DNA from: Candidatus Amesbacteria bacterium RIFCSPLOWO2_01_FULL_48_25
GTDB lineage: Bacteria; Patescibacteriota; Microgenomatia; CAZETR01; Amesbacteraceae
Direction of reading: 5' to 3'
Assembly: GCA_001773695.1 (NCBI GenBank)
Contig: MEXN01000007.1
Location: forward strand, 115,204 to 179,203
DNA: 64,000 bases
A model generated the notes under the pieces. It made no database searches and had not been told where the DNA came from. It worked only from the letters and a program-made list of their open reading frames with translations. Both the position numbers and the translations under genes were made by a program. Shown piece by piece: positions 8,400 through 59,802 of the stretch (position 1 is the first letter of the stretch; every line of letters starts with the position of its first letter).

Positions 8400-10490
8400 G
8401 TGGCGCAGGATTTAGCGACAATTTTGTGGTGGTGGGTAACTTTATTGTTGGTGGGGATAGCAGGTTGGCCATGGTCAAAAAAAATATTTAGGGGTTGGCC
8501 GGACCGTGGTTACTTAATGGCTAAGGCGTTGGGACTGGCAATAGTTACATATGTAATTTGGATCGGGGGAACAATTGGCGTATTTCCATTTATCCAGGCC
8601 TCAACTTGGCTAGTGGTATTGGGGGTGTGGTATTTGGGAAGACGGGTGAGTCGCGGGGAGAAAGGAATAAGTTGGAAGATGATTTTTTGGGAAGAGGGGG
8701 TTTTTTTGGCGGCCTTGATACTTTGGAGTTGGGTAAAGGCACATGAGCCGACGATTAATGGGTTGGAAAAGTTCATGGATTACGGATTTACGAGATCGAT
8801 TTTGCAGGGAAAGTATTTTCCGCCCCTGGATATGTGGTTTGCCGGCAAACCCATCAACTACTATTATTTCGGACACTTGATGATGGCGGCGCTAACCCGG
8901 TTGTCGGGGATGTCACTTGGGTACACTTTTAACTTGATGTTGGCGACTATTTTTGCCATGTGCCTAACCCAGTCGTATGCTATTGGTCGACAGCTTTTGA
9001 ATAAGCTGCCCATAGCATGGGCCATTGGAGGAGCATTGCTAATTGCGTATCTGGTAACACTGGCTGGCAACCTGCACACGATTTATGCCTTTACGTCAGG
9101 GTATGCCGGGCGGGAAGATAATCCCCCGCCATTTTGGGATTTGGAGTTTACATCTGAGGTGGGAAAAAACTACTGGTACCCCAATGCCACCCGGTTTATC
9201 CCGTGGACGATCCACGAATTTCCCAGTTACTCGTTTGTGGTATCGGATGTGCATGGGCACGTGTTGAGTATCCCCCTGGCTTTGTTGGCTATTGCCCTGT
9301 TGGTGAACATGTTTGGCCGGTTGCGGGAAGAAATAAATTGGAAGGAATACGGTTTGTATGGCTGGATCTCGGGCCTCATGTTTATGACGAATGCGCTGGA
9401 TGGAATTATATATGCCGGGCTATTCGCTGTACTGCTCATCGCCCGAAATTTACAATTTTCAATTTCCAATTCACAATTAATTTCTAAATTTCTAAATTTT
9501 CAATTTTTCAAACCGCTGATAGTCGTTGGGATGGTGTTTGCGGTGACAATATCGCCGTTTGTGGCCAGGTTCGAGCCGTTTGTGTCGGGGGTGGCGGTAA
9601 ATTGTCCGCCGGAACAGTTGGCTAACTCAAAAATAGGACCTATAATTTTCGAGGGGGCAGAGAAGTGTCAAAAATCTCCCCTGTGGATGATGTTGGTTTT
9701 GTGGGGGTTTTTCGTCTATTGCGGCTGGTGGTATATAGCTGGAGCCAGAGAAAAGGAATTGTCTGTTGAATCGAAGTTGTTGGGAGCATTTCTGGTGTTT
9801 TCGCTACTGTTAATAACATTTCCGGAGTTTTTTTACTTTAAAGATATTTACCCGTTGCATTTTCGCAGCAACACCATGTTCAAGCTGGGATACCAGGCGT
9901 TTATGCTGTCGGGAATAGCTTCGGGGTATGCCATAACTTACGAGCTATGGCGCAAAAAGCGGGTGGTGTGGCTAACGGGAGCGGTGATATTGGCGTTACT
10001 CGTGATGATTTATCCCAAATTCGCAGTCAACTCATACTTTGGAAACTTAAAAACCTACCAATCAATCTGGGGGTTGGGGTGGTTGTCTTCCCGCTATCCT
10101 GACGACGCCCAGGCCATCGAATGGCTGGAAAAAACGTTGCCGGTGGGGGAACAACCGGTGGTATTGGAAGCAAATGGAGATAGCTACACAGATTTCAACC
10201 GAATATCGGCATTTTCCGGTTTGCCGACTGTGGCTGGGTGGACGGTGCACGAATGGTTGTGGAGGGGGGGGTATGAGCCGATTGCTCTGAGAGCGGAAGA
10301 GGTAAAAAGAGTGTACGAGTCCATCGACATAGAGGAGACTAAGCTACTCCTTAATAAATATGACGTGAGATATATCGTGGTGGGATCAATGGAAAGGCAG
10401 AAATATCCCCAGCTGGACGAAGAAAAGATTAAAAAACTGGGAAGCACGGTGTTTACTACTAATACTTTGGTGATTTACCAAGTTATTTGA
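8400..10490 (+). CDS. Large polytopic membrane protein (~700 aa) with a big extracytoplasmic C-terminal domain; DUF2298/AftD-like candidate glycan polymerase/transferase.
   Basis: The ORF track opens at 8232 but overlaps the minus-strand gene. A TATAAT at ~8385 followed by GTG at 8400 suggests the later start. Contains the motif PINYYYFGH and 12+ TM helices. Confidence 0.45.
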   Translation: MAQDLATILWWWVTLLLVGIAGWPWSKKIFRGWPDRGYLMAKALGLAIVTYVIWIGGTIGVFPFIQASTWLVVLGVWYLGRRVSRGEKGISWKMIFWEEGVFLAALILWSWVKAHEPTINGLEKFMDYGFTRSILQGKYFPPLDMWFAGKPINYYYFGHLMMAALTRLSGMSLGYTFNLMLATIFAMCLTQSYAIGRQLLNKLPIAWAIGGALLIAYLVTLAGNLHTIYAFTSGYAGREDNPPPFWDLEFTSEVGKNYWYPNATRFIPWTIHEFPSYSFVVSDVHGHVLSIPLALLAIALLVNMFGRLREEINWKEYGLYGWISGLMFMTNALDGIIYAGLFAVLLIARNLQFSISNSQLISKFLNFQFFKPLIVVGMVFAVTISPFVARFEPFVSGVAVNCPPEQLANSKIGPIIFEGAEKCQKSPLWMMLVLWGFFVYCGWWYIAGAREKELSVESKLLGAFLVFSLLLITFPEFFYFKDIYPLHFRSNTMFKLGYQAFMLSGIASGYAITYELWRKKRVVWLTGAVILALLVMIYPKFAVNSYFGNLKTYQSIWGLGWLSSRYPDDAQAIEWLEKTLPVGEQPVVLEANGDSYTDFNRISAFSGLPTVAGWTVHEWLWRGGYEPIALRAEEVKRVYESIDIEETKLLLNKYDVRYIVVGSMERQKYPQLDEEKIKKLGSTVFTTNTLVIYQVI
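9453..9512. repeat. AT-rich CAATTT/AAATTT in-frame insertion (encodes NLQFSISNSQLISKFLNFQFFK) inside the membrane-protein gene.
   Basis: Sequence aaatttacaattttcaatttccaattcacaattaatttctaaatttctaaattttcaatttttcaaa. The 24-mer aatttacaattttcaatttccaat is identical at 59471-59494. Confidence 0.7.
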
Positions 10491-11535: not shown

Positions 11536-11537
11536 TA

Positions 11538-13388
11538 GTGGATATTTTGAAGAGCCTAAATCCCCAACAACAAAAAGCGGTGGCTTTCAGTGAGGGGCCC
11601 TTGCTTATTTTAGCAGGAGCGGGAAGTGGAAAGACAAAGGTATTGACTCACCGAGTGGCATATCTCGTTCGCAATAAAAACGTGAGACCTGAAAATATTT
11701 TGCTTTTGACGTTTACAAATAAGGCGGCCGGGGAAATGATGAAGAGGATAATGGGCTTGTTGGGGGCGGAATTTAGAGGATATGGTGGGACTTTTCATAG
11801 TTTTTGTGCCAAGATTTTACGAAAATACGCTGGTTGGGCTCGATTGGATCCCAACTTTGTGATTTTTGACGAGGCGGACCAACTAGACACGGTAAAGCAG
11901 GCCATGGTAGCTGTGGGAGTGGATATAAAATCGGTCAGGCCGGGGTCGGTACTGGGAGCTATATCGGGCGCCAAAAACGAACTAATAACTCCGGCCGAAT
12001 ATGCCGGTTTTGCCAGAGGAAACTTTTCCCAAACTGTAGCCCGAGTATATTTGGCTTACCAACAGTTGCTTCGGCGATATAAAGCTTTGGATTTTGATGA
12101 CTTGTTGGTAGAAACAGTCAGGCTGTTGCAAATCGAGCCGGAGGTGAGGGAGAAATTAGAGGAAAATTTCAAGTTTATATTAGTAGACGAATATCAAGAT
12201 ACGAATAAGGCGCAGTATGAAATTACGAAAGTGCTCTCTAAAAAACACGGGAACTTGACTGTTGTCGGAGACGCGGCACAGGCGATTTACTCGTGGCGGG
12301 GGGCAAATTATCGAAACCTATTGTATCTTAAACAAGACTTCCCCACTCTCACGACTCTAAATTTGGAGCAAAACTACCGGTCTACCCAGATAATTTTATC
12401 GGCAGCCAATGAAGTGGTATCTAAAAACAAAAATCATCCTATATTGAACTTGTGGACGGATAGAGGTGGAGGAGAAAAAGTAACTTTTTACGAGGCAGAG
12501 AGTGAGTACGATGAAGCCCAATTTGTCATAGGACAAATTGCAACAACCAAATATTCGGAATTTGCGGTGCTATACCGGACAAATGCGCAGTCGCGGGTGT
12601 TGGAGGAGGCGTTTTTGCATTCAGGGATCCCTTACTCACTGGTTGGGGGGGTGAGATTTTACGAAAGAAAAGAGATAAAGGACGTGATTGCGTATTTGCG
12701 TTTGGTTTTAAACCCCGAGGATGAAATTTCCAGGAAGAGGGCAGAAAAATTGGGAAAGGGCAGACTACAGAAATTTACAAATTCCAATTTACAATTTTCA
12801 AATAAACTTACCTTGGACATTTTGGATGAGGTGTTGAAAATTACGGGATATTTGGAACAATTTGATGAAATGAATGAGGAAGACGCGGCCAGATTGGAAA
12901 ACATAAAAGAGCTGCGAAGCGTGGCGCAGGAATTTCCTAAATTGCCTGAACTTTTAGAACAGATTGCACTAACCGAAAAAGAAGCGTCTAGGAGTCAGCG
13001 TCTAGCGTCTAGCGGAGAAGGGGCTGTAACTCTGATGACACTACACGCGGCGAAGGGGCTGGAGTTTAAACGTGTGTTTATGGTGGGAATGGAGGAAGGG
13101 TTATTCCCCCACTCCAGATCGCTTATGGATCCCGAACAAATGGAGGAGGAACGACGCTTGTGTTATGTGGGGATGACCCGGGCGATGGATAACTTGTATC
13201 TGACTTACGCCCGGAGGAGGTTATATTTCGGGTCGCGATCCAATAATCCGGTGTCTCGGTTTTTGGCGGATATTCCGGAGGAGTTAATCGAAGTTAACCA
13301 AGAGATTAAGAAGGCTAAGAGATTAAGCTTGGAGCAAAATTGGGGTTTTGATGAAGAGGGAAATTGGCAGTGGACGCCAGACGATTAA
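11538..13388 (+). CDS. pcrA: UvrD/PcrA/Rep-family ATP-dependent DNA helicase.
   Basis: Walker A GPLLILAGAGSGKTKVLT, helicase motifs TFH, VDEYQDT, LEQNYRST, and a C-terminal domain. Carries in-frame AT-rich (12771-12810) and AGAGATTAAG (13302-13333) insertions. Confidence 0.85.
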   Translation: MDILKSLNPQQQKAVAFSEGPLLILAGAGSGKTKVLTHRVAYLVRNKNVRPENILLLTFTNKAAGEMMKRIMGLLGAEFRGYGGTFHSFCAKILRKYAGWARLDPNFVIFDEADQLDTVKQAMVAVGVDIKSVRPGSVLGAISGAKNELITPAEYAGFARGNFSQTVARVYLAYQQLLRRYKALDFDDLLVETVRLLQIEPEVREKLEENFKFILVDEYQDTNKAQYEITKVLSKKHGNLTVVGDAAQAIYSWRGANYRNLLYLKQDFPTLTTLNLEQNYRSTQIILSAANEVVSKNKNHPILNLWTDRGGGEKVTFYEAESEYDEAQFVIGQIATTKYSEFAVLYRTNAQSRVLEEAFLHSGIPYSLVGGVRFYERKEIKDVIAYLRLVLNPEDEISRKRAEKLGKGRLQKFTNSNLQFSNKLTLDILDEVLKITGYLEQFDEMNEEDAARLENIKELRSVAQEFPKLPELLEQIALTEKEASRSQRLASSGEGAVTLMTLHAAKGLEFKRVFMVGMEEGLFPHSRSLMDPEQMEEERRLCYVGMTRAMDNLYLTYARRRLYFGSRSNNPVSRFLADIPEELIEVNQEIKKAKRLSLEQNWGFDEEGNWQWTPDD

Positions 13389-13401
13389 GTATAATTGGAA
13401 T

Positions 13402-14295
13402 ATGAATAGCGATGATTGGAACAAAAATGCTGGGCATCCGATGCAATCTTTCGAGTGGGGGGAGTTTAGGGAGAAGGTGGGGAATAAAATATCGAGGGTT
13501 GTCGGTGACAAGCAATATCAGATAATTTGGAGTCGGATTAAGCCTTTTGATTTGTGGTTTGGATATTGCCCGATGTCTGGGATGCCGAATGAGAAAGATA
13601 TTAAGATACTAAGAGATGAAGCGATTAAGAATAATGGGCTCGGGATAAGATTTGAGCCTAATGAGATGAAGGGCGCGAAAATACCGGAAAGGATGGTGTC
13701 GGGAAGACATTTATTTAAGCCCAAGACTTTTCAGATAGATTTGACCTTGGGTGAAGATGAATTATTAAATAGAATGCATCCGAAGTGTAGATATAATATT
13801 CGGCTGGCACAAAAGCACGGAGTAAAAATTGGGGAAGGAGATATAGAAAGTTATGTGAAATTGATATTTGGAAAGACAGTAAAAAGACAAAAAATTTATT
13901 CACACTCGGAAAAATATCATTGGGAATTGGCACAGCTGGGATGGGTTCATTTGTTTAAGGCAGAATATAAAAATAAAGTGATTGCGAGCTGGATGGTTTT
14001 TGCCTGGAAAAATTTTGTTTACTATGCATATGGTGCATTCGATGATGACTACAAAAACTTGATGGCACCTGTTTTGGGTCTTTGGGAAATAATTAGGTGG
14101 GGAAAAAGAGAAGGATTCAAAACTCTGGATTTGTGGGGGGCCGAAGAGGGGCGCGGATTTAGCAGGTTTAAACAGCAGTTCGGACCAGAACTGGTAGAAA
14201 TGGTCGGAACGTATGATTTACCAATTAATTTTTTGCATTGGCCGTTTAGAATGGCGGAGGAAATAAGATGGAAGATCTTGCGGATATTGAAGTAG
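13402..14295 (+). CDS. FemAB/FemX-family aminoacyl-tRNA-dependent peptidyltransferase (peptidoglycan interpeptide bridge).
   Basis: HPKCRYNIRLAQKHGV (FemABX RYNIRKA motif); ~300 aa; start taken at MNSDDW (13402) directly after the pcrA stop. Confidence 0.65.
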   Translation: MNSDDWNKNAGHPMQSFEWGEFREKVGNKISRVVGDKQYQIIWSRIKPFDLWFGYCPMSGMPNEKDIKILRDEAIKNNGLGIRFEPNEMKGAKIPERMVSGRHLFKPKTFQIDLTLGEDELLNRMHPKCRYNIRLAQKHGVKIGEGDIESYVKLIFGKTVKRQKIYSHSEKYHWELAQLGWVHLFKAEYKNKVIASWMVFAWKNFVYYAYGAFDDDYKNLMAPVLGLWEIIRWGKREGFKTLDLWGAEEGRGFSRFKQQFGPELVEMVGTYDLPINFLHWPFRMAEEIRWKILRILK

Positions 14296-15080
14296 AGGAC
14301 GTGAGGCAGAGCATAGAATACGGCCGATATATTGAGAAAATCGGGTGGAGAGTGGAGAGTGGTATTTTTTTACGAAAGTTGGGGCCGGTGACAATTGCGA
14401 AGATACAAAGAAGGGATCTGCCGCCAGGTTGGGAAAAGATTTTAAAAAGAAACCGAGTTGTGATGTGTAAATATGAGCCATTGAGGACGCCTGTTGGGTG
14501 GAGACAGGATAACTGGCCGTTGTTGGGAACAAAGACGTTGAGAGTTGACTTAAGGCCAAGTGAAGAAAAAATATTTAATTCGTTTAAAAAGGACTGCAGA
14601 TACATCGTGCGGAAATTACAAGATACAACCCGCCTGCCGGACGGGCAGGGATACAAGATACAAACAGATGATTTTGAGGGATTTTATGAGATTTGGAGAA
14701 AATCGGCAAAAAGAAAGCATTTATGGATTCCGGGTAAAAAAGAGTTTGATTTTTTGGTTGACAGTTTTGGAGAAAAGTGTTTTTGTGCGACCATAAACGG
14801 TGAAGCCGGGGCGGTTATTTTGACGCATGAGAAAACGGCGTTTTATTATTACGCAGGGGCGACGGAAGAGGGAAACAGAATGAATTTGCCATATTTAGTG
14901 GTGTGGGAGGCTATGAAGGAAGCTAAAAGGCGGGGTATGAAAGTTTGGGATTTTGAAGGAATATACGATTCCAGATGGCCAAACAAAGGATGGTTGGGAT
15001 TTTCCCATTTTAAGAAAAGCTTTGGGGGAGTGGAAGTGGAATACCCGGGGTGTTTTACTAGATGGCAGGTACCGTTTTAG
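14268..15080 (+). CDS. Second FemAB/FemX-family peptidyltransferase (tandem paralog).
   Basis: FKKDCRYIVRKLQD motif and the same domain layout as the upstream gene; 28-nt overlap with it. Confidence 0.65.
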   Translation: MEDLADIEVEDVRQSIEYGRYIEKIGWRVESGIFLRKLGPVTIAKIQRRDLPPGWEKILKRNRVVMCKYEPLRTPVGWRQDNWPLLGTKTLRVDLRPSEEKIFNSFKKDCRYIVRKLQDTTRLPDGQGYKIQTDDFEGFYEIWRKSAKRKHLWIPGKKEFDFLVDSFGEKCFCATINGEAGAVILTHEKTAFYYYAGATEEGNRMNLPYLVVWEAMKEAKRRGMKVWDFEGIYDSRWPNKGWLGFSHFKKSFGGVEVEYPGCFTRWQVPF

Positions 15081-15427: not shown

Positions 15428-15449
15428 GTTTTTTTAATGATGCCGTTAT

Positions 15450-18287
15450 TTACTGGGCGTTGTCAACTTGAGCGTAATCACAGAGGATTTTGTAGTCGCA
15501 GATACGACAGAGTTGGGAACCGGAGCAGTGGAAGTCCGAGCGGGAGATTTGGTCCGCATAAGACATGATCTGTTGTTTGGCTTCTTCCAGCTGAGTGGAG
15601 GTTCTGGTGGTGGAAATTTTTTTCTGCTGGTCAAAAAAATATAAACTCAACAAAACATCCTCTGGTTTACGATTGAAGGGGGGTTCACGAAGAAGTGTGG
15701 CAACAAGAGCGTAAAAAGAAAGCTGGAGATCTTTGTCCGCGTCTTTTTGAGTGGGAAGCGTGACGCTAGTTTTGTAGTCTATTATTTCTATTTTACCGTT
15801 GGGGAGAAGATCCACGCGATCTATTTTGCCGCCGATTTTAAGAAAGACCTGCCTGCCGGCAGGCAGGGGTACAATAAAAGGCTCTTCTAGTTTTATCGGC
15901 AAGTGCTTGGGGTCAAAGTTTTTTTCAAGATATTCGGTCAAATATTTTTGGCCCCGATCAAAATAGGCCTGCTCGTGTTTTTTTGAGGTATAGCCTTCTG
16001 AGGACCAATTTTTCTTTAATAAGTCCAAGACGTCGGTCTGGCCTTTGTTGGTGAAGAATTCTTTTAGTGTGGCGTGGATGGTGTTACCGAAGGAAGAAGC
16101 GGCAGAAGTGGGAGTGGGGATTTTTAAAATATATTTGGCTTTATAGTGCAAGGGGCAATCTAAAAACGTCTGGATTTGGGAATAGCTTAAATAGGTTATT
16201 GGGATAGGCTTCCCGCCTGCAACGCTTTGCGTAGCAATGCGGGCAGGTTGCCAGTCTAATAATGAGGGTTGAATGGCTGGATGTGCTGATGACTGGATGG
16301 GGCCGAGGGTTTCGGCGATGAAGGGGGAGAGTTTCTTGATCCGCTTGCCTTCGCCATAAAAATCCGCAGCAGTAAGAAAGAGAAGATCTTTGGCACGGGT
16401 GAGGCCAACATAAAAGAGGCGACGCTCTTCCTGCAAATGAGAGTCCCCTTCCGGCAATATTTCTTTTATAAGTGCGTCGGGAATGGGAATGGGTTCGGAG
16501 CGGGAGCGGGAAGGAAAACGATCAACAACTAGATTAACCAAAAAGACAACCGGGAACTCCAGACCCTTGGCCGAATGAACCGTTAAAATATTGACAGCGT
16601 CGTTTTGACCCCAATCGACTTCGGCGGCCTGAGGAGATTCGCCCATATCGGAGGAGAGATTGAGCCAATCAACAATGGTGTGAACTGAGGCGTCGGAATT
16701 TTGAGTTTCGAAGGATTTTAGCTTGTTAAAAAATTTCATGATATTTTGAGCTTTGATTTCGTCGATGGGGGTTCGATAGTCAAGTATGGCTTTAAGTAGG
16801 CCCGATTTTTCTAGAAAATCGTAAAGAATTTGCCCGGCGGTTTCTTTGGGAACAAGGTGCAAATGCCGGTCAATTAAATCGACTAGAAGTTTAACCGAAG
16901 GCAAATCCGACTGTTCACTGGCGGCAAACAACGATAAGTTCTGTTTTCGGGCGAGGTTTGTGATTACGGCCAGGTCGCGGGCGGGAATACTAAAAAATTC
17001 CATGGCCAAGACACGATAGAATGAAACGTTGTCCTCAAAGTTGTAGAGGACTTTTAAATAGGCAATAAGATCTTTTATTTCTGGCTGGTGGAAAAGACGT
17101 CCTGGGCCAAGAAACTGATGTGGTATTCCATGATGAGATAGGGCACGGACGAAAGGTTCGGCGTGGGCATTAGCACGCACAAGGATTGCAAAGTCTTTAG
17201 CTGTTAGCTTTGAGTCGTTAGTCAGAATCTCCTTAATTTTCTTGGCGACGGCGTCGGCTTCGGACTCGACGCGGTCGAAATGAAGTAATTCTATTTTTTC
17301 ACCTTTGATTTTTCGGACAGAAGTTAATTTTTTGTCGATTTTTTCTTTGACCTCTAACCGATCCGGGTTGTTGTTTTGGATAAGAGTGTGGGCTTTGTCG
17401 AGAATACCTTGGGTCGAGCGGTAATTTTGCACAAGAGTAATCAACTTGGCATCGGAATAATTTTTGCGAAATTGAATAACATTGGAAATGGCGGCACCGC
17501 GCCATCTGTAAATCGCCTGGTCGTCATCGGCTACAACCGTCAAGTTGCGGTTGCGGCTGGCTAAGAGATTGATGAGTTGATTTTGGGCGTAATTGGTGTC
17601 TTGAAATTCATCCACTAGTATATATTTGAATTTCTGCTGATATAGTTTGAGGACGCTGGGACGGTCGCGGAAGAGTTTGAGAGAATAGGAAATTAAATCC
17701 GAAAAATCTAATACACCCTCTTTGACTTTAAGATCGGAATAGTCGGAATAAAGCCCGGCCAATTCTTGATAATTTGAGTCCTTTTTTTTGGACCATGCCA
17801 AATATTGGGAAGGACTGACGTCCTCGTCCTGAAGGCGGTTGAAATGCTGGAGAGCAGCTGTCAAAAATTTGGCCGGATTGCCCAGAGGGCGATAGTAATT
17901 AAGATCAAAATCAAAAAGGTGGTTTTTGAGAAGAGAAACGGCGTCGGGAGCGGTAAGAAGCTTGTAATTAGTATCTAGGCCCAGATGCAAGCCTTCTTCG
18001 CGTAAGATGCGATCACAAAATGAATGAAAGGTGCTGACCCACATTTGGGTATAACCGTAAGGCAGAGCGACGTCGATACGTTCCTGCATCTGTCCAGCCG
18101 CTTTTTCAGTGAATGTGAGGCATAATATTTCGGAAGGTTGGGCGAGACCTTGGGCTATGAGCCATTTAACGCGCTCGGTGACGACTGTGGTTTTGCCTGT
18201 CCCCGCACCGGCTATTATCAGAAGCGGGCCGGAGCTGTGAGTTACGGCTTCGAGTTGCTGTTTATTGAGGGTTTTTTCTTCGGACAT
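15450..18287 (-). CDS. UvrD-type helicase fused to a C-terminal PD-(D/E)XK RecB-like nuclease with a Cys4 cluster (AddB/Cas4-like).
   Basis: Walker A GPLLIIAGAGTGKTTV, YRWRGA, and a C-terminal ...CSGSQLCRICDYKILC four-cysteine motif after a nuclease-like region. ATG at 18287 is preceded by GAGGTGAGG (12-nt spacing). Confidence 0.75.
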   Translation of the reverse strand: MSEEKTLNKQQLEAVTHSSGPLLIIAGAGTGKTTVVTERVKWLIAQGLAQPSEILCLTFTEKAAGQMQERIDVALPYGYTQMWVSTFHSFCDRILREEGLHLGLDTNYKLLTAPDAVSLLKNHLFDFDLNYYRPLGNPAKFLTAALQHFNRLQDEDVSPSQYLAWSKKKDSNYQELAGLYSDYSDLKVKEGVLDFSDLISYSLKLFRDRPSVLKLYQQKFKYILVDEFQDTNYAQNQLINLLASRNRNLTVVADDDQAIYRWRGAAISNVIQFRKNYSDAKLITLVQNYRSTQGILDKAHTLIQNNNPDRLEVKEKIDKKLTSVRKIKGEKIELLHFDRVESEADAVAKKIKEILTNDSKLTAKDFAILVRANAHAEPFVRALSHHGIPHQFLGPGRLFHQPEIKDLIAYLKVLYNFEDNVSFYRVLAMEFFSIPARDLAVITNLARKQNLSLFAASEQSDLPSVKLLVDLIDRHLHLVPKETAGQILYDFLEKSGLLKAILDYRTPIDEIKAQNIMKFFNKLKSFETQNSDASVHTIVDWLNLSSDMGESPQAAEVDWGQNDAVNILTVHSAKGLEFPVVFLVNLVVDRFPSRSRSEPIPIPDALIKEILPEGDSHLQEERRLFYVGLTRAKDLLFLTAADFYGEGKRIKKLSPFIAETLGPIQSSAHPAIQPSLLDWQPARIATQSVAGGKPIPITYLSYSQIQTFLDCPLHYKAKYILKIPTPTSAASSFGNTIHATLKEFFTNKGQTDVLDLLKKNWSSEGYTSKKHEQAYFDRGQKYLTEYLEKNFDPKHLPIKLEEPFIVPLPAGRQVFLKIGGKIDRVDLLPNGKIEIIDYKTSVTLPTQKDADKDLQLSFYALVATLLREPPFNRKPEDVLLSLYFFDQQKKISTTRTSTQLEEAKQQIMSYADQISRSDFHCSGSQLCRICDYKILCDYAQVDNAQ

Positions 18288-18299
18288 GTCCCAATAATA

Positions 18300-18353
18300 C
18301 CTCACCTCTAACCCCTCTCCTAAATTTAGGAGAGGGGAACCAAAGGGGTGAGG
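18300..18353. repeat. GC-rich nested inverted-repeat element (copy R1): CCTCACC-tctaa-CCCCTCTCCT-aaattt-AGGAGAGGGG-aaccaaa-GGGGTGAGG. It sits in the divergent helicase/rnhB spacer and supplies a Shine-Dalgarno sequence to both genes.
   Basis: Both arm pairs read directly. GGGGTGAGG lies 12 nt before the rnhB ATG, and its complement GAGGTGAGG lies 12 nt before the helicase ATG. Confidence 0.7.
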
Positions 18354-25229: not shown

Positions 25230-25910
25230 ATGAAAAAACCACTCATTACAATCACCACTGACTTTGGGGATGGGTTTGCCACAAGTCAGCTAAAAGTGAT
25301 TGTGGCAGGCTTGGGTTACACTGGTCATCTGGTGGAAAACCACGATGTCAAGCCATATTCGATCGTCGAGGGGGCGTATGGGATATGGCAGCTGGCCAAA
25401 TATTGCCCAAAGGGATCGGTGCATGTGGGAGTAGTAGATCCGGGAGTAGGGTCAGATAGAGCCGGAATAGTAATTAAAACCAAGAATTTCTGGTTTGTGG
25501 GGCCGGATAATGGGCTGTTGTATCCCGCGGCAGTTGCGGATGGAATTGAAAGAATTTGGAAAATTATAGATTTTGAAAATGTTTCAAATACTTTCCATGG
25601 ACGAGATGTGTTTATAAAACAGGCAGTGTGGCTGGCGCAGGGGAAAGAACCAAGAGGGGAAGAGATTGAAGAGATTAAGAGATTAAGTTTCGAAGAAGGG
25701 CAGGTGGTGCATATAGACCATTATGGGAATGCCAAGATTTGGGGGAAAAAGACTTTTGGGCTGCCGGTAGTCAAAACTTTTTCGGATGTGCCCGAGGGGA
25801 GTCCGTTAATTTTTAATGGCAGTAGTGACCTACTGGAGCTGGCAGTGAATCTGGGCAGCGCAGAGGAGCGATTTGGATTAAAATTGGGACAAGTTATAGA
25901 AAAACTGTGA
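25230..25910 (+). CDS. SAM hydroxide adenosyltransferase (DUF62; SAM hydrolase, fluorinase/chlorinase-like fold).
   Basis: N-terminal ITITTDFGDGFA and VGVVDPGVGSDR motifs. Carries an in-frame AGAGATTAAG repeat (EEIEEIKRLS) in the inter-domain linker. Confidence 0.7.
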   Translation: MKKPLITITTDFGDGFATSQLKVIVAGLGYTGHLVENHDVKPYSIVEGAYGIWQLAKYCPKGSVHVGVVDPGVGSDRAGIVIKTKNFWFVGPDNGLLYPAAVADGIERIWKIIDFENVSNTFHGRDVFIKQAVWLAQGKEPRGEEIEEIKRLSFEEGQVVHIDHYGNAKIWGKKTFGLPVVKTFSDVPEGSPLIFNGSSDLLELAVNLGSAEERFGLKLGQVIEKL

Positions 25911-35124: not shown

Positions 35125-35974
35125 ATTGCGACGAGACCCAGCCTTGCCCGACGGCAGGCAGGCCAGAACTGGTTGACGGCAGGTCTACCTTAATAAGATA
35201 CCACCCAGAATCGGATTTGAGGAGGGGGTAGGTGGCGGCAGGTTTGACCTGACCAAGTTCAGAACTTGTGGTTTTTGGCTCGGAACGGACACGTAAAAAG
35301 CCGGTAGGCGTATCCAAAATGCGCACATAGGGGCGGGCGAGAGTGGCAGAAGGGGTAGCTGGCGAAGCGGTGGGAAGAGGAGTGGGAAGAGGAGCGGGTG
35401 AACCCGATAGCTTGACCGTGAGAGCTAAGCGGTAGCTAGCGACGGCTTGGGCCGTAATTTGGCGATCTGTAAACCCAGGAGCAGAGAGGGTAATGTTGTG
35501 ATCTCCGGGAGTAACCGGAGAAATAAGCAGTGGGGTAAACCCTTGGGGTTGGCCATCGATGGTGACAGAGGCGGAGTCTGGGTAACTGGTAACAATACTG
35601 AGGCTGGCTTCAGACCCACTTTCGCCAAGTAGACTAGTGATGTCTCCGGCCGAAGTGTCGTCCGTTTCGCCAAACTCGCGGTGGATGACAGTGTAGGTAT
35701 CTGGAGTAAGGCGGATTTTGGCTTGATACGGCGAAACGTTGGCCAAAGTGTCAGGGATGATTTTGACGGTCACTTCGCCTGGGGGGAAAAGTTTTTCCAA
35801 TGGGGTGCGGCCGACTTGGGCATTGTCGATAAAAACAAGCGCTGGGGGAGTGGAGAAGACTTTGAGGCCGGCGGTGGGAGTACGGGAACGAATAAATGCG
35901 AAAACGCTGAAACCGACACCGATAATTAGGCCGGCGGCGATGAGGATTAGGCCGATAAGTTTGGTTTTAGGCAC
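35105..35974 (-). CDS. Membrane-anchored protein with two PEGA domains, a Pro/Thr linker and a C-terminal SH3b-like domain.
   Basis: N-terminal TM; PEGA-like segments (...VGRTPLEKLFPPGEVTV..., ...DGQPQGFTPLLISPVTPGDHNITL...); C-terminal ...GWYLIKV...GWVSS. Confidence 0.55.
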   Translation of the reverse strand: MPKTKLIGLILIAAGLIIGVGFSVFAFIRSRTPTAGLKVFSTPPALVFIDNAQVGRTPLEKLFPPGEVTVKIIPDTLANVSPYQAKIRLTPDTYTVIHREFGETDDTSAGDITSLLGESGSEASLSIVTSYPDSASVTIDGQPQGFTPLLISPVTPGDHNITLSAPGFTDRQITAQAVASYRLALTVKLSGSPAPLPTPLPTASPATPSATLARPYVRILDTPTGFLRVRSEPKTTSSELGQVKPAATYPLLKSDSGWYLIKVDLPSTSSGLPAVGQGWVSSQYAQKYE

Positions 35975-44618: not shown

Positions 44619-45059
44619 GAGGGAAGATAGTTCGGTCAAAAATTTAGCTTGGGCGGGATGAATTTTGACTTGGGCGATGGAGAGAGAAAACCACTCGCCC
44701 CTGTCGACTTCGGGGTAAGATTTACCAAAGAGGACAAAAGTGTTGCTCTTGAGCTGGGTGGGGTCGAGATTACCTTCCACGGACCAGGCATAAATAACTT
44801 TGCCGCTTTGGATCTTGACTGGAGATAGAGGTACAAAATCGCCGGAGATGATAGCGCCGGTTTCTTCAAAAAATTCTCTTTTGGCAGTCTGAAGCTGATC
44901 TTCGCCGGGGCTAAACTCTCCTTTGGGAATGGACCAGACTCCCATGTTCTTTTTGGCCCAGAACGGGCCGCCGGGATGGACGAGAAAAATTTGCAGGTCG
45001 GGCTGGTGACGAAAAAGCAAGATGCCAGCGCTATTTTTTCTGAGGGTGGAAGAAGGCAT
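44604..45059 (-). CDS. NUDIX hydrolase (HPGGPFWAKKxxGxWSIPKGE subfamily).
   Basis: LLFRHQPDLQIFLVHPGGPFWAKKNMGVWSIPKGEFSPGEDQLQTAKREFFEETG. Confidence 0.7.
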   Translation of the reverse strand: MPSSTLRKNSAGILLFRHQPDLQIFLVHPGGPFWAKKNMGVWSIPKGEFSPGEDQLQTAKREFFEETGAIISGDFVPLSPVKIQSGKVIYAWSVEGNLDPTQLKSNTFVLFGKSYPEVDRGEWFSLSIAQVKIHPAQAKFLTELSSLLTRI

Positions 45060-45888
45060 AGCCTAATCCTACTCTTTCTGTGGTCATTTTGGGTTTCATA
45101 TATAAATATTGCAACCAGAATAGTAATAGATTTATTGGAAACAGTAAATTTGAAATTTTAAATTTTAAATTTGAAATCAAGTCTAAGTTATTAAATTTTA
45201 AATTTTTCAATGATTCTGAATAAGCCACTGGAAGGTAATCTTTGGCCCAGGAGTTGGCGGTTAAAAACCCGTAGTGGGTGCCGCCGCGGTCGAAGATGCA
45301 TTTGGCTTGCAAAATTTCGTGGGCGGTATATAAGTTATTAGCTGTTAGTCGTAAGCTATTAGCATCTAAATAGAGGTTGTCGCAGATGAGGCCGGGGGCG
45401 ATTTTGACTCCCGGTTTGCGGCGAAAAGAATGGATGTTGAGATACACAAGGAGACGGGTGAGCCAGAGGGTGTGGGGAGAGGTAATAATCATCAAATCGA
45501 TGTCGTCGTCTGCGGGGCAGTTGTTCATGGCCAGGGCGCCGGTGACGAAGATGGCCTGGATAAAGGGAATTTTGGAGAGTTTATCCCCTACTCTGCGAGC
45601 GATTAACCATTTTGGTTTACTGAACTTCGCACGTTGTTTTCTGAGATGAATTGAGTTCTGATAACCTGACAAAAAATAAAATCCGTCTTTTTTCTGTACC
45701 TCACCCCATCCCTCTCCTAAATTCTCGCTTTGCTCGTGCCGTTGGCCAGGAGAGGGAGCCAGAGGGAGAGGTTTAGAACTCCAACGGCGGATTTCTGTAT
45801 ACGTTAGCGGGTAGTCGTAGCGGGCGAAGTAGGACAGGGTATTTGCCAGGGAGTTATTTTTGAGTTGGGGGAGCGACGATGAGGCCAT
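45031..45888 (-). CDS. Polymerase-beta-superfamily nucleotidyltransferase-like protein carrying an inserted repeat element. C-terminal extent uncertain because the 3' end runs into AT-rich simple repeats.
   Basis: TGALAMNNCPADDDIDLMII (G[SG]…DxD NTase motif). The N-terminal segment LAPSPGQRHEQSENLGEGWGEV is encoded by repeat copy R3. Confidence 0.4.
   Translation of the reverse strand: MASSSLPQLKNNSLANTLSYFARYDYPLTYTEIRRWSSKPLPLAPSPGQRHEQSENLGEGWGEVQKKDGFYFLSGYQNSIHLRKQRAKFSKPKWLIARRVGDKLSKIPFIQAIFVTGALAMNNCPADDDIDLMIITSPHTLWLTRLLVYLNIHSFRRKPGVKIAPGLICDNLYLDANSLRLTANNLYTAHEILQAKCIFDRGGTHYGFLTANSWAKDYLPVAYSESLKNLKFNNLDLISNLKFKISNLLFPINLLLFWLQYLYMKPKMTTERVGLGYAFFHPQKK
45699..45771. repeat. Full-length copy (R3) of the GC-rich inverted-repeat element: CCTCACCCCATCCCTCTCCT – 29-nt loop – AGGAGAGGGAGCCAGAGGGAGAGG, in frame inside the NTase-like gene.
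   Basis: Both arms are exact reverse complements of the arms of copy R4 (59189-59237). The loop resembles the loop of R5. Confidence 0.75.
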
Positions 45889-50505: not shown

Positions 50506-50540
50506 GATTAAAGCTCTCGTGCGAGAGTATAATCCTCCCT

Positions 50541-50984
50541 ATGATTTCGACGCAAATATACAAGCAAAGCGAGCTGGCGAACGTAGCTAAAAAGGTATTA
50601 CTAATGAGGCCTAATATAATAGCTTTGGAGGGGCCGATGGGAGCCGGTAAAACGACATTGACAAAAGTGTTGGCTAGAACGCTGGGGATAAAAGAGGAAA
50701 TCGTCTCCCCTACTTTCGTCCTGCACCGACCGTATTCTGGAAAAAATGGAATTACTTTTAATCATATTGACTGTTGGAGAATGGAGAAGTTCGGAGAACT
50801 GCAACATATTGGTTTGCAAAAGATGATTGGGGAAAAATCGACTATCGTGATCGAGTGGGCGGATAGGTTTGAGAAAGAGATTAAGAGATTAAGTAAGAAA
50901 GAGATTAAGTTGGTTTGGGTAAAAATTGAATATGGGGAAAAAAAGAATGAAAGGAGGATAAGTTATGAAGATATTGGCTATTGA
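50541..50984 (+). CDS. tsaE: tRNA threonylcarbamoyladenosine biosynthesis ATPase TsaE (YjeE).
   Basis: IIALEGPMGAGKTTLTKVLARTLG...VVSPTF; C-terminal in-frame AGAGATTAAG repeats (EKEIKRLSKKEIKL). Confidence 0.8.
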   Translation: MISTQIYKQSELANVAKKVLLMRPNIIALEGPMGAGKTTLTKVLARTLGIKEEIVSPTFVLHRPYSGKNGITFNHIDCWRMEKFGELQHIGLQKMIGEKSTIVIEWADRFEKEIKRLSKKEIKLVWVKIEYGEKKNERRISYEDIGY

Positions 50985-51993
50985 GACGAGCTGTGATGAG
51001 ACGGCAGCGGCGGTGACTGAGGGAACCGAAATCCTGTCGAGTGTGAAGTGGACACAGGAGATTCACAATCAATATGGCGGCGTGGTGCCTGCCCTTGCCA
51101 AGAGGGCACATGAGGAACGCATCGAGGAGATTATTAATGATGCTTTAAAGCGTTCAGAGACTAGCGTTCAGCGTCTAGGGGCGGTAGCTGTCACGGTCGG
51201 GCCTGGGCTGGCGATTGCGCTCGAGGTGGGTATTAAATGGGCGAGGAAACTGGCCGCCGATTGGCATAAACCGTTGATAGGAATAAATCACATCGAGGGT
51301 CATATACTGAGTGCTCTAAAAAAAGAGGTGACTTTCCCCTGCCAGGCCCTAGTAATCTCAGGTGGACATACGCAGGTAATTAGAGTTGATGGGATTGGAA
51401 AATATGAAATATTGGCGCAGAGCCTGGATGATGATATTGGGGAGGCGTTGGATAAAGGGGCGAGGATGTTGGGACTCCCCTACCCGGGTGGCCCAGCTTT
51501 GGAGAAGTTGGCGGCACAGGGAGATCCAATAAAATATAAACTGCCATTGCCTATGGCGGGGAGAGAAGGAAGGGCATTTAGTTATTCAGGGCTTAAGACG
51601 GCGTTTTACCGTCTAGTTACCCAGTTGCACAGTTACCCAGTTGCACAGTTTGAACCACAGGAAATTTCAGATCTGGCGGCGGGTTATCAAGCGATGGTGT
51701 TTAGACATTTAGTGAGAACCCTTAAAGTGAATGTTCAAAATTCAATGTTCAATGTTCATGACCTTTTGGTGGGGGGTGGGGTGGCAGCAAATATGAAGTT
51801 GAGGGACGAGATTAAGAAATTAAGCAATGAAGTCAGCTTAAACGTTCATTACCCAGCTAATTTAATGCTGTGCACGGATAATGCGGCCATGATCGGAGTA
51901 GCGGCGGGATTTAAGGCGAAAAGGGGCGAGTTTACTGACCCGGAGAGAATTGATCGTCTGCCGAGGTGGAGGGTGGACGAAATTTCCTCTTAA
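50965..51993 (+). CDS. tsaD: tRNA N6-adenosine threonylcarbamoyltransferase TsaD (Kae1/Gcp).
   Basis: MKILAIETSCDETAAAV, HxEGH (INHIEGHIL), GGVAAN. Contains two in-frame simple-repeat insertions (51617-51655 and 51726-51762). Confidence 0.9.
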   Translation: MKILAIETSCDETAAAVTEGTEILSSVKWTQEIHNQYGGVVPALAKRAHEERIEEIINDALKRSETSVQRLGAVAVTVGPGLAIALEVGIKWARKLAADWHKPLIGINHIEGHILSALKKEVTFPCQALVISGGHTQVIRVDGIGKYEILAQSLDDDIGEALDKGARMLGLPYPGGPALEKLAAQGDPIKYKLPLPMAGREGRAFSYSGLKTAFYRLVTQLHSYPVAQFEPQEISDLAAGYQAMVFRHLVRTLKVNVQNSMFNVHDLLVGGGVAANMKLRDEIKKLSNEVSLNVHYPANLMLCTDNAAMIGVAAGFKAKRGEFTDPERIDRLPRWRVDEISS

Positions 51994-55397: not shown

Positions 55398-56067
55398 TGG
55401 GTTTGGCTTCTGGTTTGGTTTGTTCGGTGGTTTCAGTTGGTGTAGGCGTCTCCCCTCCTCCCTCGGTTGGGGCAGCCTCTACTGGGGGCGCTTCTACTTT
55501 CTCTTCTTTGGCCAAGGGCTCGATTTTGGCAATAATGGTCTCAGGGTTAGTCTTGAGAACTAGTTTGGCAGATAATTTGACATCAAGCGCATAAATGGCC
55601 TGGTTGACTTCGGTTAGAGAGGTGACGTCTGCATCGAGATGGTCCGGCATGTCCGTGGGGAGTCCTTCAATTTCTACCTCATCTTGTTGTTGAACCAGAA
55701 TGCCCAGTCCGTCTTTTTCGGCCGGGGCCTCTCCGGTTAGTTTGACGGATACCGGAACAGTAACTTTTTGCTTAAGATCTACCTGGTGGAATGCGATGTG
55801 AAGAATTTGCGCACTTGTGGGGTGATAAATGACCTGTGATACCAAAACCGGACGATTTTCTTTCTCTCCTTCTACTTGGAGATAAAGCAGGGTAGACTCC
55901 CCTACTTCCCGATAAACTTTCTGAAAGTCCTTGGTGTTTAGCTGAACATTTAGGGAGGGGATTTTCTTACCAAAAATATTTGCCGGAACTAACGCTTGTG
56001 ATCTTAAAGTTTTGACTTTCCGACCGAGAATTGTTCGTGGTTGAACAGAGAGTTGTGGCTTATTCAT
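55390..56067 (-). CDS. rplY: Ribosomal protein L25 (Ctc/general-stress form) with a low-complexity Pro/Glu/Thr C-terminal tail.
   Basis: MNKPQLSVQPRTILGRKVKTLRSQALVPANIFGK... typical L25 N-domain plus Ctc beta-barrel domain. Confidence 0.85.
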   Translation of the reverse strand: MNKPQLSVQPRTILGRKVKTLRSQALVPANIFGKKIPSLNVQLNTKDFQKVYREVGESTLLYLQVEGEKENRPVLVSQVIYHPTSAQILHIAFHQVDLKQKVTVPVSVKLTGEAPAEKDGLGILVQQQDEVEIEGLPTDMPDHLDADVTSLTEVNQAIYALDVKLSAKLVLKTNPETIIAKIEPLAKEEKVEAPPVEAAPTEGGGETPTPTETTEQTKPEAKPNA

Positions 56068-58076: not shown

Positions 58077-58150
58077 GCCTGGTTTGAAAATTTTTTGAGC
58101 TTGGAATAACTCTTATAAGATAATTACACTTTATAACATGAAACCAAAAA

Positions 58151-58573
58151 TTAAAAATTTGCCTTGTTTAAGGTCAGGTTGACCAGTTCGTCTGCTGGAG
58201 AATTTTGCTCCCTGGGGATGTATATAAAGTTAGCAATATTTGATTTACCACTTTCTATTAAATTTTTAATTTCTAAATATTTAAGTTTTAAAATTGTGTC
58301 TTTTATTTTGTATAACCCCTTTAGTTGGTTCACGACGAGAAGAGAGTCGAGATAGTAGTTTACCAGTTGATCAGTTTTACAGTTGTTCAGTAACCATTTT
58401 AGTGATTCGATCACTGCTTGATATTCGGCCTGGTTGTTGGTAGCAGTGCCTAAGTAGAATCCCTGTTTGTGAAGAGTTTTCCCTGTAGAGTCTCGGACTA
58501 CAAAGGCGGAGGCCGCTGGCCCAGGATTGCCGCGGGCACCGCCGTCACAAAAAATACTTAGGGAGTTGTTCAT
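58151..58573 (-). CDS. rnhA: Ribonuclease HI.
   Basis: IFCDGGARGNPGPAASAFV, TNNQAEYQAV, and C-terminal SPADELVN (DEDD catalytic residues). AT-rich and CAGTTGATCAGTT insertions present. Confidence 0.8.
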   Translation of the reverse strand: MNNSLSIFCDGGARGNPGPAASAFVVRDSTGKTLHKQGFYLGTATNNQAEYQAVIESLKWLLNNCKTDQLVNYYLDSLLVVNQLKGLYKIKDTILKLKYLEIKNLIESGKSNIANFIYIPREQNSPADELVNLTLNKANF

Positions 58574-58578
58574 AGTAC

Positions 58579-59802
58579 TTAGTGCTTAGTACTTAGGTTT
58601 TTAGATTGTATATAAATAAGTGACATTAAGATAGTTAGCAGTAGGGTGTTTTGGTGCAGAGTAACCCAATAGTGATCAGCCGCTCCTGTTATTAAGATAA
58701 CCAGAAGCGGAATTTTCAATTTCCTATTTTCAATTTCGATCCATTGATCGCGCTTTGCGAGCAAATAATTTTCAATAATCCAATATCCAATCACCAAAAG
58801 CGCCGGGAGGCCGAGTTCGGAAGCTAGGAGGAGATAAATATTGTGAACCGGTTGTGAAGATAGAGAATAGGGCATAGCGAATAGGTGGTAGGGAGAGGGG
58901 ATGAAGTTGCCGAGACCGACGCCCAGTACAGGATGATTTTTGATAAGTGTGATCGATTTGCCGATAAGAAATAGGCGCTCTGATAAGGAAGAGGGGTTGC
59001 CGGGAATTAGAGTAGAAGAGAAGAAGAGGAGAAGAGTCGAAGAAATAGCAAGGCTAATTTTTAACTTTAAACTTTTAATTTTAAATAGCAGCCAGGTTAC
59101 TAAAAGAGCTGCTTCAAAGAGAATTGCGGTTCGGGAAAAGGTGAGGGGAATGGTTAGAGCTGCTAGCACAATAGCAATGCAAGCAAGACCTCTCCCTCTG
59201 GCTCCCTCTCCTGATTCAGGAGAGGGATGGGGTGAGGTTATTAAGTAAATAACGATTAACCCGCTTACTAATAAAAATCCCGCTAGGGCGTTGGGATGGG
59301 GAAGTGTGGCGTATGGGCGGAGGGTAAGACGGCCATCGATGGCGATTTTGGCTATGCCAGGGGTAGTGATATCGAAGCGGCGTTCGCCTAACCAGTAGAG
59401 GAGACCACCAAGAGAACCCTGTTTGAAAAATTGTAACCAGGCGAGAAGGGAGGTCCAGATCACGCTGGCACTCAATGACCAATTTACAATTTTCAATTTC
59501 CAATCAATTTCAAATGTTAAATATTTAAATATCCAAAAATACTCTAATACTCGGAGCCATTTGTAGAGGGCGATAAAAGGAGATTGAGATATTAGGATAT
59601 TAAGTACAACAAAAATAATTGCCCAAAAGGGAATTTTGATTCGCTGGCGTGATATAAGAACCATGGCTAGAATCAGAATGTCCGTGAAGTAGAGAGTGGG
59701 GGAGAGGTAGTCTACGCGCAAGCCATTGACTAGACTCCAGGATGGCCAGAGGTGAAGCGCGAGTTGGGAAGGAAGAAGTAAGACGAGGAGAAAGAGGATC
59801 AC
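58579..59802 (-). CDS. Polytopic membrane protein, O-antigen ligase/Wzy_C-like (tentative), heavily invaded by repeat insertions.
   Basis: ~12 TM helices plus a periplasmic loop. Contains repeat copy R4 and at least three AT-rich CAATTT-type blocks, all in frame. Confidence 0.4.
   Translation of the reverse strand: MILFLLVLLLPSQLALHLWPSWSLVNGLRVDYLSPTLYFTDILILAMVLISRQRIKIPFWAIIFVVLNILISQSPFIALYKWLRVLEYFWIFKYLTFEIDWKLKIVNWSLSASVIWTSLLAWLQFFKQGSLGGLLYWLGERRFDITTPGIAKIAIDGRLTLRPYATLPHPNALAGFLLVSGLIVIYLITSPHPSPESGEGARGRGLACIAIVLAALTIPLTFSRTAILFEAALLVTWLLFKIKSLKLKISLAISSTLLLFFSSTLIPGNPSSLSERLFLIGKSITLIKNHPVLGVGLGNFIPSPYHLFAMPYSLSSQPVHNIYLLLASELGLPALLVIGYWIIENYLLAKRDQWIEIENRKLKIPLLVILITGAADHYWVTLHQNTLLLTILMSLIYIQSKNLSTKH
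59189..59237. repeat. Copy R4 of the GC-rich inverted-repeat element (reverse orientation, 5-nt loop): CCTCTCCCTCTGGCTCCCTCTCCT-gattc-AGGAGAGGGATGGGGTGAGG.
   Basis: Exact reverse complement of both arms of R3. Confidence 0.75.

Follow-up and report, generated by a model that had tools for sequence, protein, structure and literature searches.

Short AT-rich blocks are embedded in several unrelated genes of a 64,000-nt stretch of contig MEXN01000007.1 from Candidatus Amesbacteria bacterium RIFCSPLOWO2_01_FULL_48_25; the whole stretch is referred to as the window. The blocks are tandem arrays of the unit AATTTNC (GNAAATT on the other strand), in which N varies between units and some units comprise 8 nt. 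These AATTTNC arrays represent just one of many unit families in this genome, in which they co-occur and nest with small GC-rich palindromes. They are a DNA-level phenomenon with passenger peptides, because they are read in either orientation. We consider it moderately probable that the blocks are hepta- and octanucleotide arrays of the kind known as short tandemly repeated repetitive sequences (STRR) or long simple-sequence repeats (LSSR), that they lie in linkers tolerating insertions and deletions, and that they mostly replace sequence instead of adding length, by a turnover mechanism which we infer. A preliminary description of this DNA had regarded the blocks as low-complexity insertions kept in frame by selection. 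It was largely correct in what it observed and partly correct in how it read the blocks; the phenomenon extends further and is stranger than it had described, yet it stays within a known repeat class.

Arrays of 7- and 8-nt units within genes

PcrA, Wzy, DnaA and other proteins of the window show 100% matches to the record of Candidatus Amesbacteria bacterium RIFCSPHIGHO2_01_FULL_48_32 (Microgenomates, Candidate Phyla Radiation (CPR)/Patescibacteria). All listed blocks lie within intact open reading frames (ORFs). Their hosts are a DUF2298/YYY membrane protein, a PcrA/UvrD helicase, a Wzy_C protein, RNase H, TsaD and the NTase-like gene C, whose product has no Pfam match and whose relatives are annotated as nucleotidyltransferase-like.

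DUF2298/YYY gene, 8400-10490, plus strand: array at 9446..9512 in a loop, units AATTTAC AATTTTC AATTTCC AATTCAC followed by 2.6 copies of the 8-nt unit AATTTCTA; holds the 24-mer at 9447-9470
PcrA/UvrD gene, 11538-13388, plus strand: array at 12766..12810 in the shortened 2B-domain linker, units AAATTTAC AAATTCC AATTTAC AATTTTC
Wzy-like gene, 58579-59802, minus strand, loop 1: GNAAATT array at 59479..59552, peptide EIDWKLKIVNW; holds the second 24-mer copy at 59481-59504
Wzy-like gene, minus strand, loop 3: looser AT-rich 7-nt array of TAACTTT/AAAATTA type at 59049..59092, peptide LFKIKSLKLKI
Wzy-like gene, minus strand, C-terminal loop: array at 58711..58740, reading AATTTTC AATTTCC TATTTTC AATTTCG on the plus strand, peptide IEIENRKLKI
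NTase-like gene C, 45031-45888, minus strand: AAATTTG/AAATTTT array at 45144..45211 in a linker, peptide LKNLKFNNLDLISNLKFKISN
tsaD, 50965-51993, plus strand: weak array of four AATGTTC units at 51730..51759, encoding VNVQNSMFNVH
rnhA, 58151-58573, minus strand: AT-rich, loosely repeat-like stretch at 58217..58317; a conserved helix, not an insertion

Each of the related blocks named in the preliminary description was recovered within a few nt of its position there, and the GC content measured (0.18-0.23 for the blocks, ~0.46 for the window) agrees with the values of about 20% and about 45% that it had given. The block of gene C, which had been assigned to the 3′ end of the gene, actually occupies a linker ahead of a conserved C-terminal segment. 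The assignment of all blocks to a single family held for five sites with clear AATTTNC/GNAAATT arrays; the stretches at 59049-59092 and in tsaD are looser, and that in rnhA corresponds to a conserved helix.

The 24-mer AATTTACAATTTTCAATTTCCAAT occurs exactly twice in the window, and its expected count in 100 dinucleotide shuffles is 0. A copy with three mismatches is present at 12772-12795 in pcrA. Two identical copies had been reported at 9458-9481 and 59471-59494: the identity was confirmed, with both positions shifted by about 10 nt, and the second copy, which had been placed on the minus strand, lies on the plus strand like the first. Only the host genes differ in strand.

Tandem Repeats Finder reported a period of 7 nt (8 nt in some cases) at each block, with period-7 tracts at 9447-9507, 12772-12801, 45146-45177, 58711-58737 and 59480-59504. 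A lag-autocorrelation scan of the window at a lenient threshold yielded six period-7 and five period-8 arrays, compared to ~0.2 and 0 in codon-shuffled controls. At the same threshold no window arrays were detected at period 12 or at periods 6 and 9, which are those expected of coding repeats; the strict threshold returned a single period-12 array as well. In 309 kb of CPR loci, 111 period-7 arrays were counted against 0.2 expected, and they comprise dozens of unit sequences. In the window, 9 of 11 arrays are located within ORFs; over all scanned loci, 55 of 131 arrays are located within ORFs of at least 150 aa. The blocks are therefore not generic low-complexity sequence, since both approaches reveal a tandem periodicity of 7-8 nt. 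The analogy drawn with the low-complexity inserts of reduced genomes does not fit either: the period is 7-8 nt and not 3 nt, the genome has 46% GC, and arrays are also present in intergenic hairpins and in one 23S rRNA gene of other CPR bacteria.

The AATTTNC module is in sense orientation in the DUF2298 and PcrA genes and in antisense orientation in the Wzy gene. Over all loci, 30 ORF-embedded arrays of the AATTTNC family divide into 14 sense and 16 antisense cases, and a role at the RNA level found no support in these numbers. As the preliminary description had proposed, the reading frame of the intact ORFs is kept and the family reuses sequence modules. The reuse is at the DNA level, and the translated peptides are unrelated depending on orientation. 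AATTTNC is free of stop codons in all three sense frames, and the A-T-C word of the 24-mer (N being A, T and C in successive units) is open in five of six frames; homogeneous AATTTTC has stops in every antisense frame. Given such openness, filtering for frame and stop codons is by itself enough to influence which arrays persist in genes.

In the window, every clear AATTTNC array is found on the G-rich plus strand. A survey of 120 loci from genomes and metagenomes, however, gave an even split (60/60) with respect to the local GC skew, so the strand pattern of the window is treated as chance. Independent of the arrays, all 2-kb bins of window positions 1-64000 have a positive GC skew (0.03-0.33), whose sign is kept across the rnpA-yidC-jag/dnaA locus (61276-63258), where an origin would be expected. 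A similar one-strand disparity of G and C has been reported for some genomes of Microgenomates (PMC7143001).

Array sites in related genomes

Comparison with orthologs (loci of other genomes are given by L numbers) does not support the view that the blocks were inserted, as equivalent segments, which the preliminary description had named as an outcome that would overturn its view, are present at the same positions in rnhA, tsaD, the PcrA linker and, for most orthologs, the loops of Wzy and gene C. The rnhA block aligns residue for residue and gap-free with LC11-RNase H1 (PDB 3u3g) and is AT-rich in all relatives, which identifies it as a conserved helix. The AT block of tsaD equals the corresponding segment of E. 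coli TsaD plus 2 residues, and the genuine insertion in this gene comprises 6 residues at a CAGTT-type array (51615-51650) located 100 nt upstream. For gene C, the block linker and the peptide LKNLKFNNLDLISNLKFKISN are common to orthologs of ~60% identity. No net in-frame insertion was found for the AT blocks of PcrA, Wzy, rnhA and tsaD.

The 2B linker of PcrA is of near-constant length and hypervariable sequence in 70 Amesbacteria-type orthologs, several of which carry other repeat-type peptides (e.g. LIFNIEF, LLVHSSWF, TNFQF). A codon alignment with three syntenic relatives revealed conserved flanks around a wholly different patch of 39-42 nt, each lineage having its own heptamer array. L046 contains CAAGCCT CAAGCAT CAAGACT CAAGTCT, a 39-nt CAAGNNT array in place of the 42-nt patch of the window, L047 contains AAATTAC TAATTTT TAATATC GAATTTC, and L048 contains AGTCCAT AGTTCGT GGTTCGT. 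A comparable situation exists in Wzy, where most of 50 orthologs carry repeat-type peptides at five or six fixed loop positions. In loop 1, the DNA of five lineages is equally long and built from GAAATTG (window), a decayed copy (L259), four CACTATT units (L258), four GACATTG units (L260) or CCTTATT/CGTAATT (L261). Peptides of the type K-I-K-x-x-K-L-K-I are found in loop 3 of many orthologs, and the C-terminal loop holds (CAAATTT)x4, (GAATATT)x4 or other arrays. At the rnpA site, the relatives have AAGCACT-type units (L258), four GAACACC units (L260) or no array (L261).

According to these alignments, most blocks are lineage-specific sequence at a fixed variable site, and insertion does not describe them. 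The location in variable loops and linkers was confirmed for the PcrA 2B linker and for the Wzy and NTase-like loops. Many divergent patches relative to the closest relative are ordinary divergence of poorly conserved genes, and arrays are not the sole source of variable patches.

One lineage-specific gain, as had been assumed for all blocks, was supported for the DUF2298 gene and measures exactly 21 nt. These nucleotides (9452-9472; three units, peptide QFSISNS) are missing in L046, the closest relative, and cover 19 of the 24 positions of the 24-mer; they represent the only net gain among the AT blocks. The hexanucleotide ACAATT, which is also an array unit, is present at both junctions. The remaining block is shared with L046, and L047 has a non-repeat loop of similar size. 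Further in-frame net gains relative to relatives concern GC-rich modules in rnpA (+72 nt, compared to L258) and in a FemAB-like gene (+21 nt). The window contains these additional arrays and modules:

ORF 5167-6813, minus strand: four ATAACGT/ATTACGT units at 5729..5761
pcrA, plus strand: 4.6 AGCGTCT units at 12983..13014, 15 nt longer than the equivalent patch of L046
8-nt arrays of AAGAGATT type at five sites: 13300-13333, 13595-13630, 25660-25693, 50875-50909 and 51806-51832
FemAB-like gene, plus strand: 21-nt palindrome CCCGCCTGCCGGACGGGCAGG at 14629..14649, an in-frame insert within a GATACAA heptamer array; absent from L046
tsaD, plus strand: perfect 16-nt (2 x 8) array CAGTTACC CAGTTGCA at 51615..51650, 2.2 copies, coinciding with the 6-residue insertion relative to E. 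coli TsaD
Wzy loop 2, minus strand: GC-rich hairpin module SPHPSPESGEGARGRG at 59188..59238, in frame; gene C has an inverted copy at 45698-45772
rnpA, minus strand: three copies of the 8-nt unit CAGTTGAC (plus strand) at 61367..61406
dnaA, plus strand: three copies of the 8-nt unit GGAGAGCG at 62145..62181, in the domain II linker (aa 83-95)

The GC-rich hairpin module has the structure CTCACC...CCCTCTCC-loop-GGAGAGGG...GGTGAG and encodes peptides of the 'SPxPSP...GEGxG' type. It is in frame in gene C, in Wzy and in rnpA (61486-61578) and intergenic once (18303-18350). The copies in gene C and Wzy are inverted relative to each other and match over 26 nt at 100% and 25 nt at 96%. These modules fold strongly (z -3.7 to -7) except for the rnpA copy (z -1.45); no hairpin potential was detected for the AT blocks of the window (z -1.5 to +1.6). 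Palindromes of the form CCTGCC...GGCAGG are present at three window sites (14629-14649, 15848-15867, 35143-35162), and in a Paceibacterota locus (L011) the same palindrome occupies the loop of an AT-heptamer hairpin. In rnhA of a Microgenomates relative (L260, 4560-4640) a complete nested element with AT-heptamer arms around the GC palindrome CTCGCCCCGAGCGGGGTCGAG lies in frame, adding about 8 residues as judged from an alignment gap.

The exact 24-mer was found in 41 species-representative genomes, which belong to many CPR lineages, a few Bdellovibrionales, Planctomycetota and one Nitrospiria bin of 64% GC. The 41 loci have one more upstream unit in common, beyond which similarity ends sharply. 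In about half of them a long AT-rich hairpin, of which the 24-mer is the left arm, closely follows a stop codon and often encloses a GC palindrome in its loop; in the others the 24-mer is part of a one-armed array inside an ORF. No Rfam family matched the window blocks or the hairpin elements. The degenerate pattern AATTTNCAATTTNCAATTTNCAAT retrieved a large array population, with TTT (51), CCC (21) and T-A-T (11) combinations among metagenome loci; the A-T-C variant was absent from viral contigs and from the 129 tabulated metagenome loci. The exact 24-mer was rejected as a mobile sequence crossing phyla, as homogeneous TTT and CCC arrays dominate and A-T-C is rare. The 41 genome matches reflect a restricted vocabulary more than proven transfer.

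Two occurrences outside the Amesbacteria are notable. In a Saccharibacteria 23S rRNA gene (L025, 4700-4900), the tip of a 23S helix has an insertion of ~180 nt, namely an AT-heptamer hairpin containing the exact 24-mer, at about positions 1206-1226 of the Rfam LSU model; it resembles an rRNA intervening sequence. The 36-nt heptamer block ELISNLQFSISNY is identical in loci of Moraniibacteriota (L023, ~5060-5105) and Giovannonibacteria (L024, ~1425-1470), in both of which it occupies the same codon position between diverged flanks. The host gene, which we take to encode leucyl-tRNA synthetase (LeuRS), shows apparently no net length change compared to LeuRS of B. subtilis.

Within 90%-identity clusters of seven host proteins (dozens of contigs from four data sources) no length differences in arrays were observed between members. 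Between species of ~60-80% protein identity, whole arrays differ, and DUF2298 shows the +21 nt. Given the lack of length variants in the clusters, the process is slow at the strain level, and the "active" process of the preliminary description is not supported on this scale. A phase-variable contingency locus was likewise rejected, because the tracts are short and imperfect, hosts include essential genes and near-identical strains lack length variants. The only deviant member of the DUF2298 cluster did not qualify as a length polymorphism, being a chimera or recombinant of two strain types. Two database proteins, P0368 (DUF2298) and P0242 (gene C homolog), have a mosaic structure that combines the window type with another type from Amesbacteria (e.g. 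the L046 type), which could reflect recombination between co-occurring strains or assembly chimeras.

Proposed array turnover and alternative explanations

If the arrays are STRR/LSSR-like repeats, slipped-strand misalignment within an array, followed by mismatch correction, would homogenise its units at unchanged length. Arrays could also exchange sequence through template switching or short-patch ectopic conversion, for which unit microhomology would serve as primer, so that a patch would be overwritten or three units added. Purifying selection would then filter frame, stop codons and linker length, so that length steps divisible by 3, such as 3 x 7 = 21 or 3 x 8 = 24 nt, would survive. Because a single 7-nt gain is a frameshift, growth in essential genes would have to proceed by frame-preserving jumps, which favours the copying of pre-formed arrays. 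The 21 nt of DUF2298 may have been copied in this way from an array like the older one in Wzy. Indeed, the window contains exactly two perfect three-unit arrays and both represent the rare A-T-C word. Loop 1 of L259 retains a decayed A-T-C copy (AATTTAC AAGTTTC GATTTCC), and the Wzy copy of the 24-mer is therefore ancestral, predating the split from L259, while the DUF2298 copy overlaps the 21 nt that L046 lacks. Moreover, different loops of one Wzy gene have lineage words in common, namely AAATTG in the window, ACTATT in L258, ATATTG in L260 and AATTTC/CAAATT in L261, and the distant 7-mers shared within Wzy are, for three of five genes, more numerous than in any of 200 codon shuffles. The two A-T-C arrays, the ancestry of the Wzy copy, the overlap in DUF2298 and the word sharing within genes support inter-locus copying.

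Several points weigh against this explanation. The mechanism is an inferred one, none of its steps having been observed directly. Arrays do not vary in length within 90%-identity clusters, so slippage would have to be slow, and short imperfect arrays are poor slippage substrates. As a step of +7 or +8 shifts the frame, stepwise growth in essential genes is hard to explain. The word sharing within genes is modest, lying above every shuffle in only three of the five genes, and L046 could just as well have lost the 21 nt by which the DUF2298 genes differ. Finally, identical words of 24-36 nt across distant CPR lineages, including the LeuRS block, are not predicted by a purely mutational model and hint at constraint or transfer.

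It is conceivable, although on balance unlikely, that the AT arrays are arms or fragments of palindromic elements of ~100-150 nt, similar to miniature inverted-repeat transposable elements (MITE), Rickettsia palindromic elements (RPE) or REPIN, which are moved in frame by a transposase encoded elsewhere. The hairpins behind stop codons with the exact 24-mer as left arm and often a nested GC palindrome, the sharp 5′ edge across the 41 loci and the complete hairpins in L260 rnhA and in the 23S rRNA helix would all agree with this, as would loops and GC modules that are present in some orthologs and missing in others; in-frame insertion of RPE provides a precedent (PMC10969869). The AT blocks of the window, however, are one-armed direct arrays of 25-70 nt lacking hairpin potential. 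Arrays with dozens of unrelated unit sequences exist, and neither a common full-length consensus nor a target-site duplication was seen; at the one junction inspected (DUF2298), the 6-nt ACAATT repeat is at the same time the array unit. No transposase was found in the window, although no search aimed at one was made. One-off insertion also leaves unexplained why orthologous sites hold different units at equal length.

The same exact words of 24-31 nt in 41 species, from many CPR lineages and a few other phyla, could be kept by selection or molecular drive as a functional DNA motif, for instance a CPR uptake signal or heptads bound by a protein of the ribbon-helix-helix type. Their inverted pairs 3′ of genes are reminiscent of terminators formed by DNA uptake sequences (DUS) and uptake signal sequences (USS), they occur in coding sequence in both orientations without length change, and the LeuRS block is identical in two lineages with diverged flanks. 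We nevertheless rate a functional motif as quite improbable. Two perfect 2-3-unit loci in 64 kb are far too low a density when about one per kb is generally known for DUS/USS, the same sites host many unrelated unit families, the A-T-C word is rare next to the dominant homogeneous TTT and CCC arrays, and the orientation is unbiased with respect to GC skew. Low complexity at the protein or composition level was the reading of the preliminary description; it would arise through AT-biased drift or codon slippage in surface loops, as in AT-rich reduced genomes. Although blocks lie in variable loops, encode N/K/I/L/F-rich peptides and keep an aromatic-x-Leu pattern in loop 1 of Wzy orthologs, this reading is very hard to sustain given the period of 7-8 and not 3 nt in a genome of 46% GC. 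One module gives unrelated peptides in its two orientations, arrays are also present outside genes and in rRNA, and GC-rich or mixed arrays (AGCGTCT, GGAGAGCG, CAAGNNT) behave alike. Insertion of low-complexity sequence at the codon level was rejected for the same reasons of period, GC content (0.46) and GC-rich arrays. Artefacts from collapsed or chimeric low-complexity reads had been named as a condition that would overturn the finding. Such sequence is prone to errors and the two mosaic proteins look chimeric between strains, but an artefact is already refuted: an identical Wzy protein of 407 aa, its three blocks included, has index entries in 39 blocks of an assembly collection, of which 24 contigs encoding the protein were read. 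Identical copies of all host proteins exist in assemblies from NCBI, JGI, ENA and Logan, and orthologs of other species have arrays at the same sites.

Beyond the slippage and copying model, a more far-reaching idea, to which we give rather little credence, is that CPR bacteria actively write or copy 7-8-nt arrays and small palindromes into permissive sites of genes, rRNA and spacers, possibly by means of an enzyme. Arrays at separate loci of a genome would then show concerted evolution, with identical words returning throughout the radiation. Another possibility of this kind is that the words are recognition signals shared among CPR bacteria. Such a process, if true, would be a previously undescribed form of short-patch genome rewriting or of ultra-small mobile DNA. 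If the observations made here are general, much of the linker variation in housekeeping proteins of CPR bacteria (DnaA domain II, PcrA 2B, RnpA, TsaD, LeuRS, loops of membrane proteins) would originate from a repeat process at the DNA level instead of from selection on the protein. Both the alignment of CPR proteins and their phylogeny would be affected, because array patches are not homologous residue by residue, and so would the annotation of "hypothetical" low-complexity peptides. Ideas on how streamlined genomes tolerate selfish or mutational repeats would need to account for the arrays. The recurrence of identical heptanucleotide units in distant bacteria would become testable, as orthologous coding sites, unlike intergenic repeats, come with a clock and a frame constraint.

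Comparison with known repeat systems

The STRR of cyanobacteria are a bacterial class of heptanucleotide repeats. According to the summary given in PMC4679880, heptanucleotide repeats are the most abundant LSSR in many bacteria (Mrazek et al. 2007). TAACTGA repeats recur in Beggiatoaceae, Cyanobacteria and Bacteroidetes without a known mechanism of transfer, and their copies in ORFs lie mostly at protein ends (MacGregor 2015, PMC4679880). The window arrays resemble these repeats in having head-to-tail 7-nt units in 2-6 copies, in forming many dispersed arrays, in the recurrence of units in distant groups and in the occasional ORF copies in stop-free orientation. At least three head-to-tail 7-nt copies, as expected of LSSR/STRR, are present in the window arrays, which are dispersed and exceed chance (six of period 7 and five of period 8, compared to ~0.2 and 0 in shuffles). 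The known repeats, however, are mainly intergenic, a placement that does not predominate here: many of the window arrays lie inside conserved housekeeping genes (pcrA, dnaA, rnpA, tsaD). They also occupy orthologous linker positions with lineage-specific units, and 8-nt units are as common as 7-nt units. No description of heptamer arrays in CPR genes was found in the searchable literature.

RPE are palindromic, ~150 bp long, have a family consensus, and lie in frame in unrelated metabolic and housekeeping genes, to whose products they add a conserved peptide (PMC10969869). They share with the window repeats that short non-autonomous elements are found in frame in permissive parts of proteins, and the GC-rich hairpin modules fit this type best. 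The AT blocks differ from it as direct arrays of 25-70 nt that form no hairpin, usually add no net length and encode no conserved peptide. A palindrome of ~100-150 bp with terminal inverted repeats, as in RPE and MITE, was seen only as hairpin versions in other CPR loci and not in the AT blocks of the window.

Among the systems with nested elements, the small dispersed repeats (SDR) which Elhai and co-workers are said to have described from Nostocales cyanobacteria in 2008 are reportedly palindromic, 21-27 nt long, mostly outside genes and nested in heptamer arrays and in one another. The 21-nt palindrome inside the GATACAA array and the GC palindromes inside AT hairpins are similar to them, except that the host is a CPR bacterium and the elements are in frame within genes. 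DUS of Neisseria and USS of Pasteurellaceae consist of one motif each at about one copy per kb. They are comparable in their occurrence in both orientations in coding DNA without length change, in the preference for poorly conserved protein segments and in the inverted pairs behind genes; instead of one dense motif, many unit families at low density are found here, with two perfect 2-3-unit loci in 64 kb. Intervening sequences of 23S rRNA are AT-rich stem-loop extensions at the tips of 23S helices. The Saccharibacteria insertion is the same kind of helix-tip extension but is built from the heptamer words of the gene arrays. Compared to all of these systems, the differing features are the CPR hosts, the location in linkers of housekeeping genes at orthologous sites, the in-place replacement with lineage-specific units and the share of 8-nt units.

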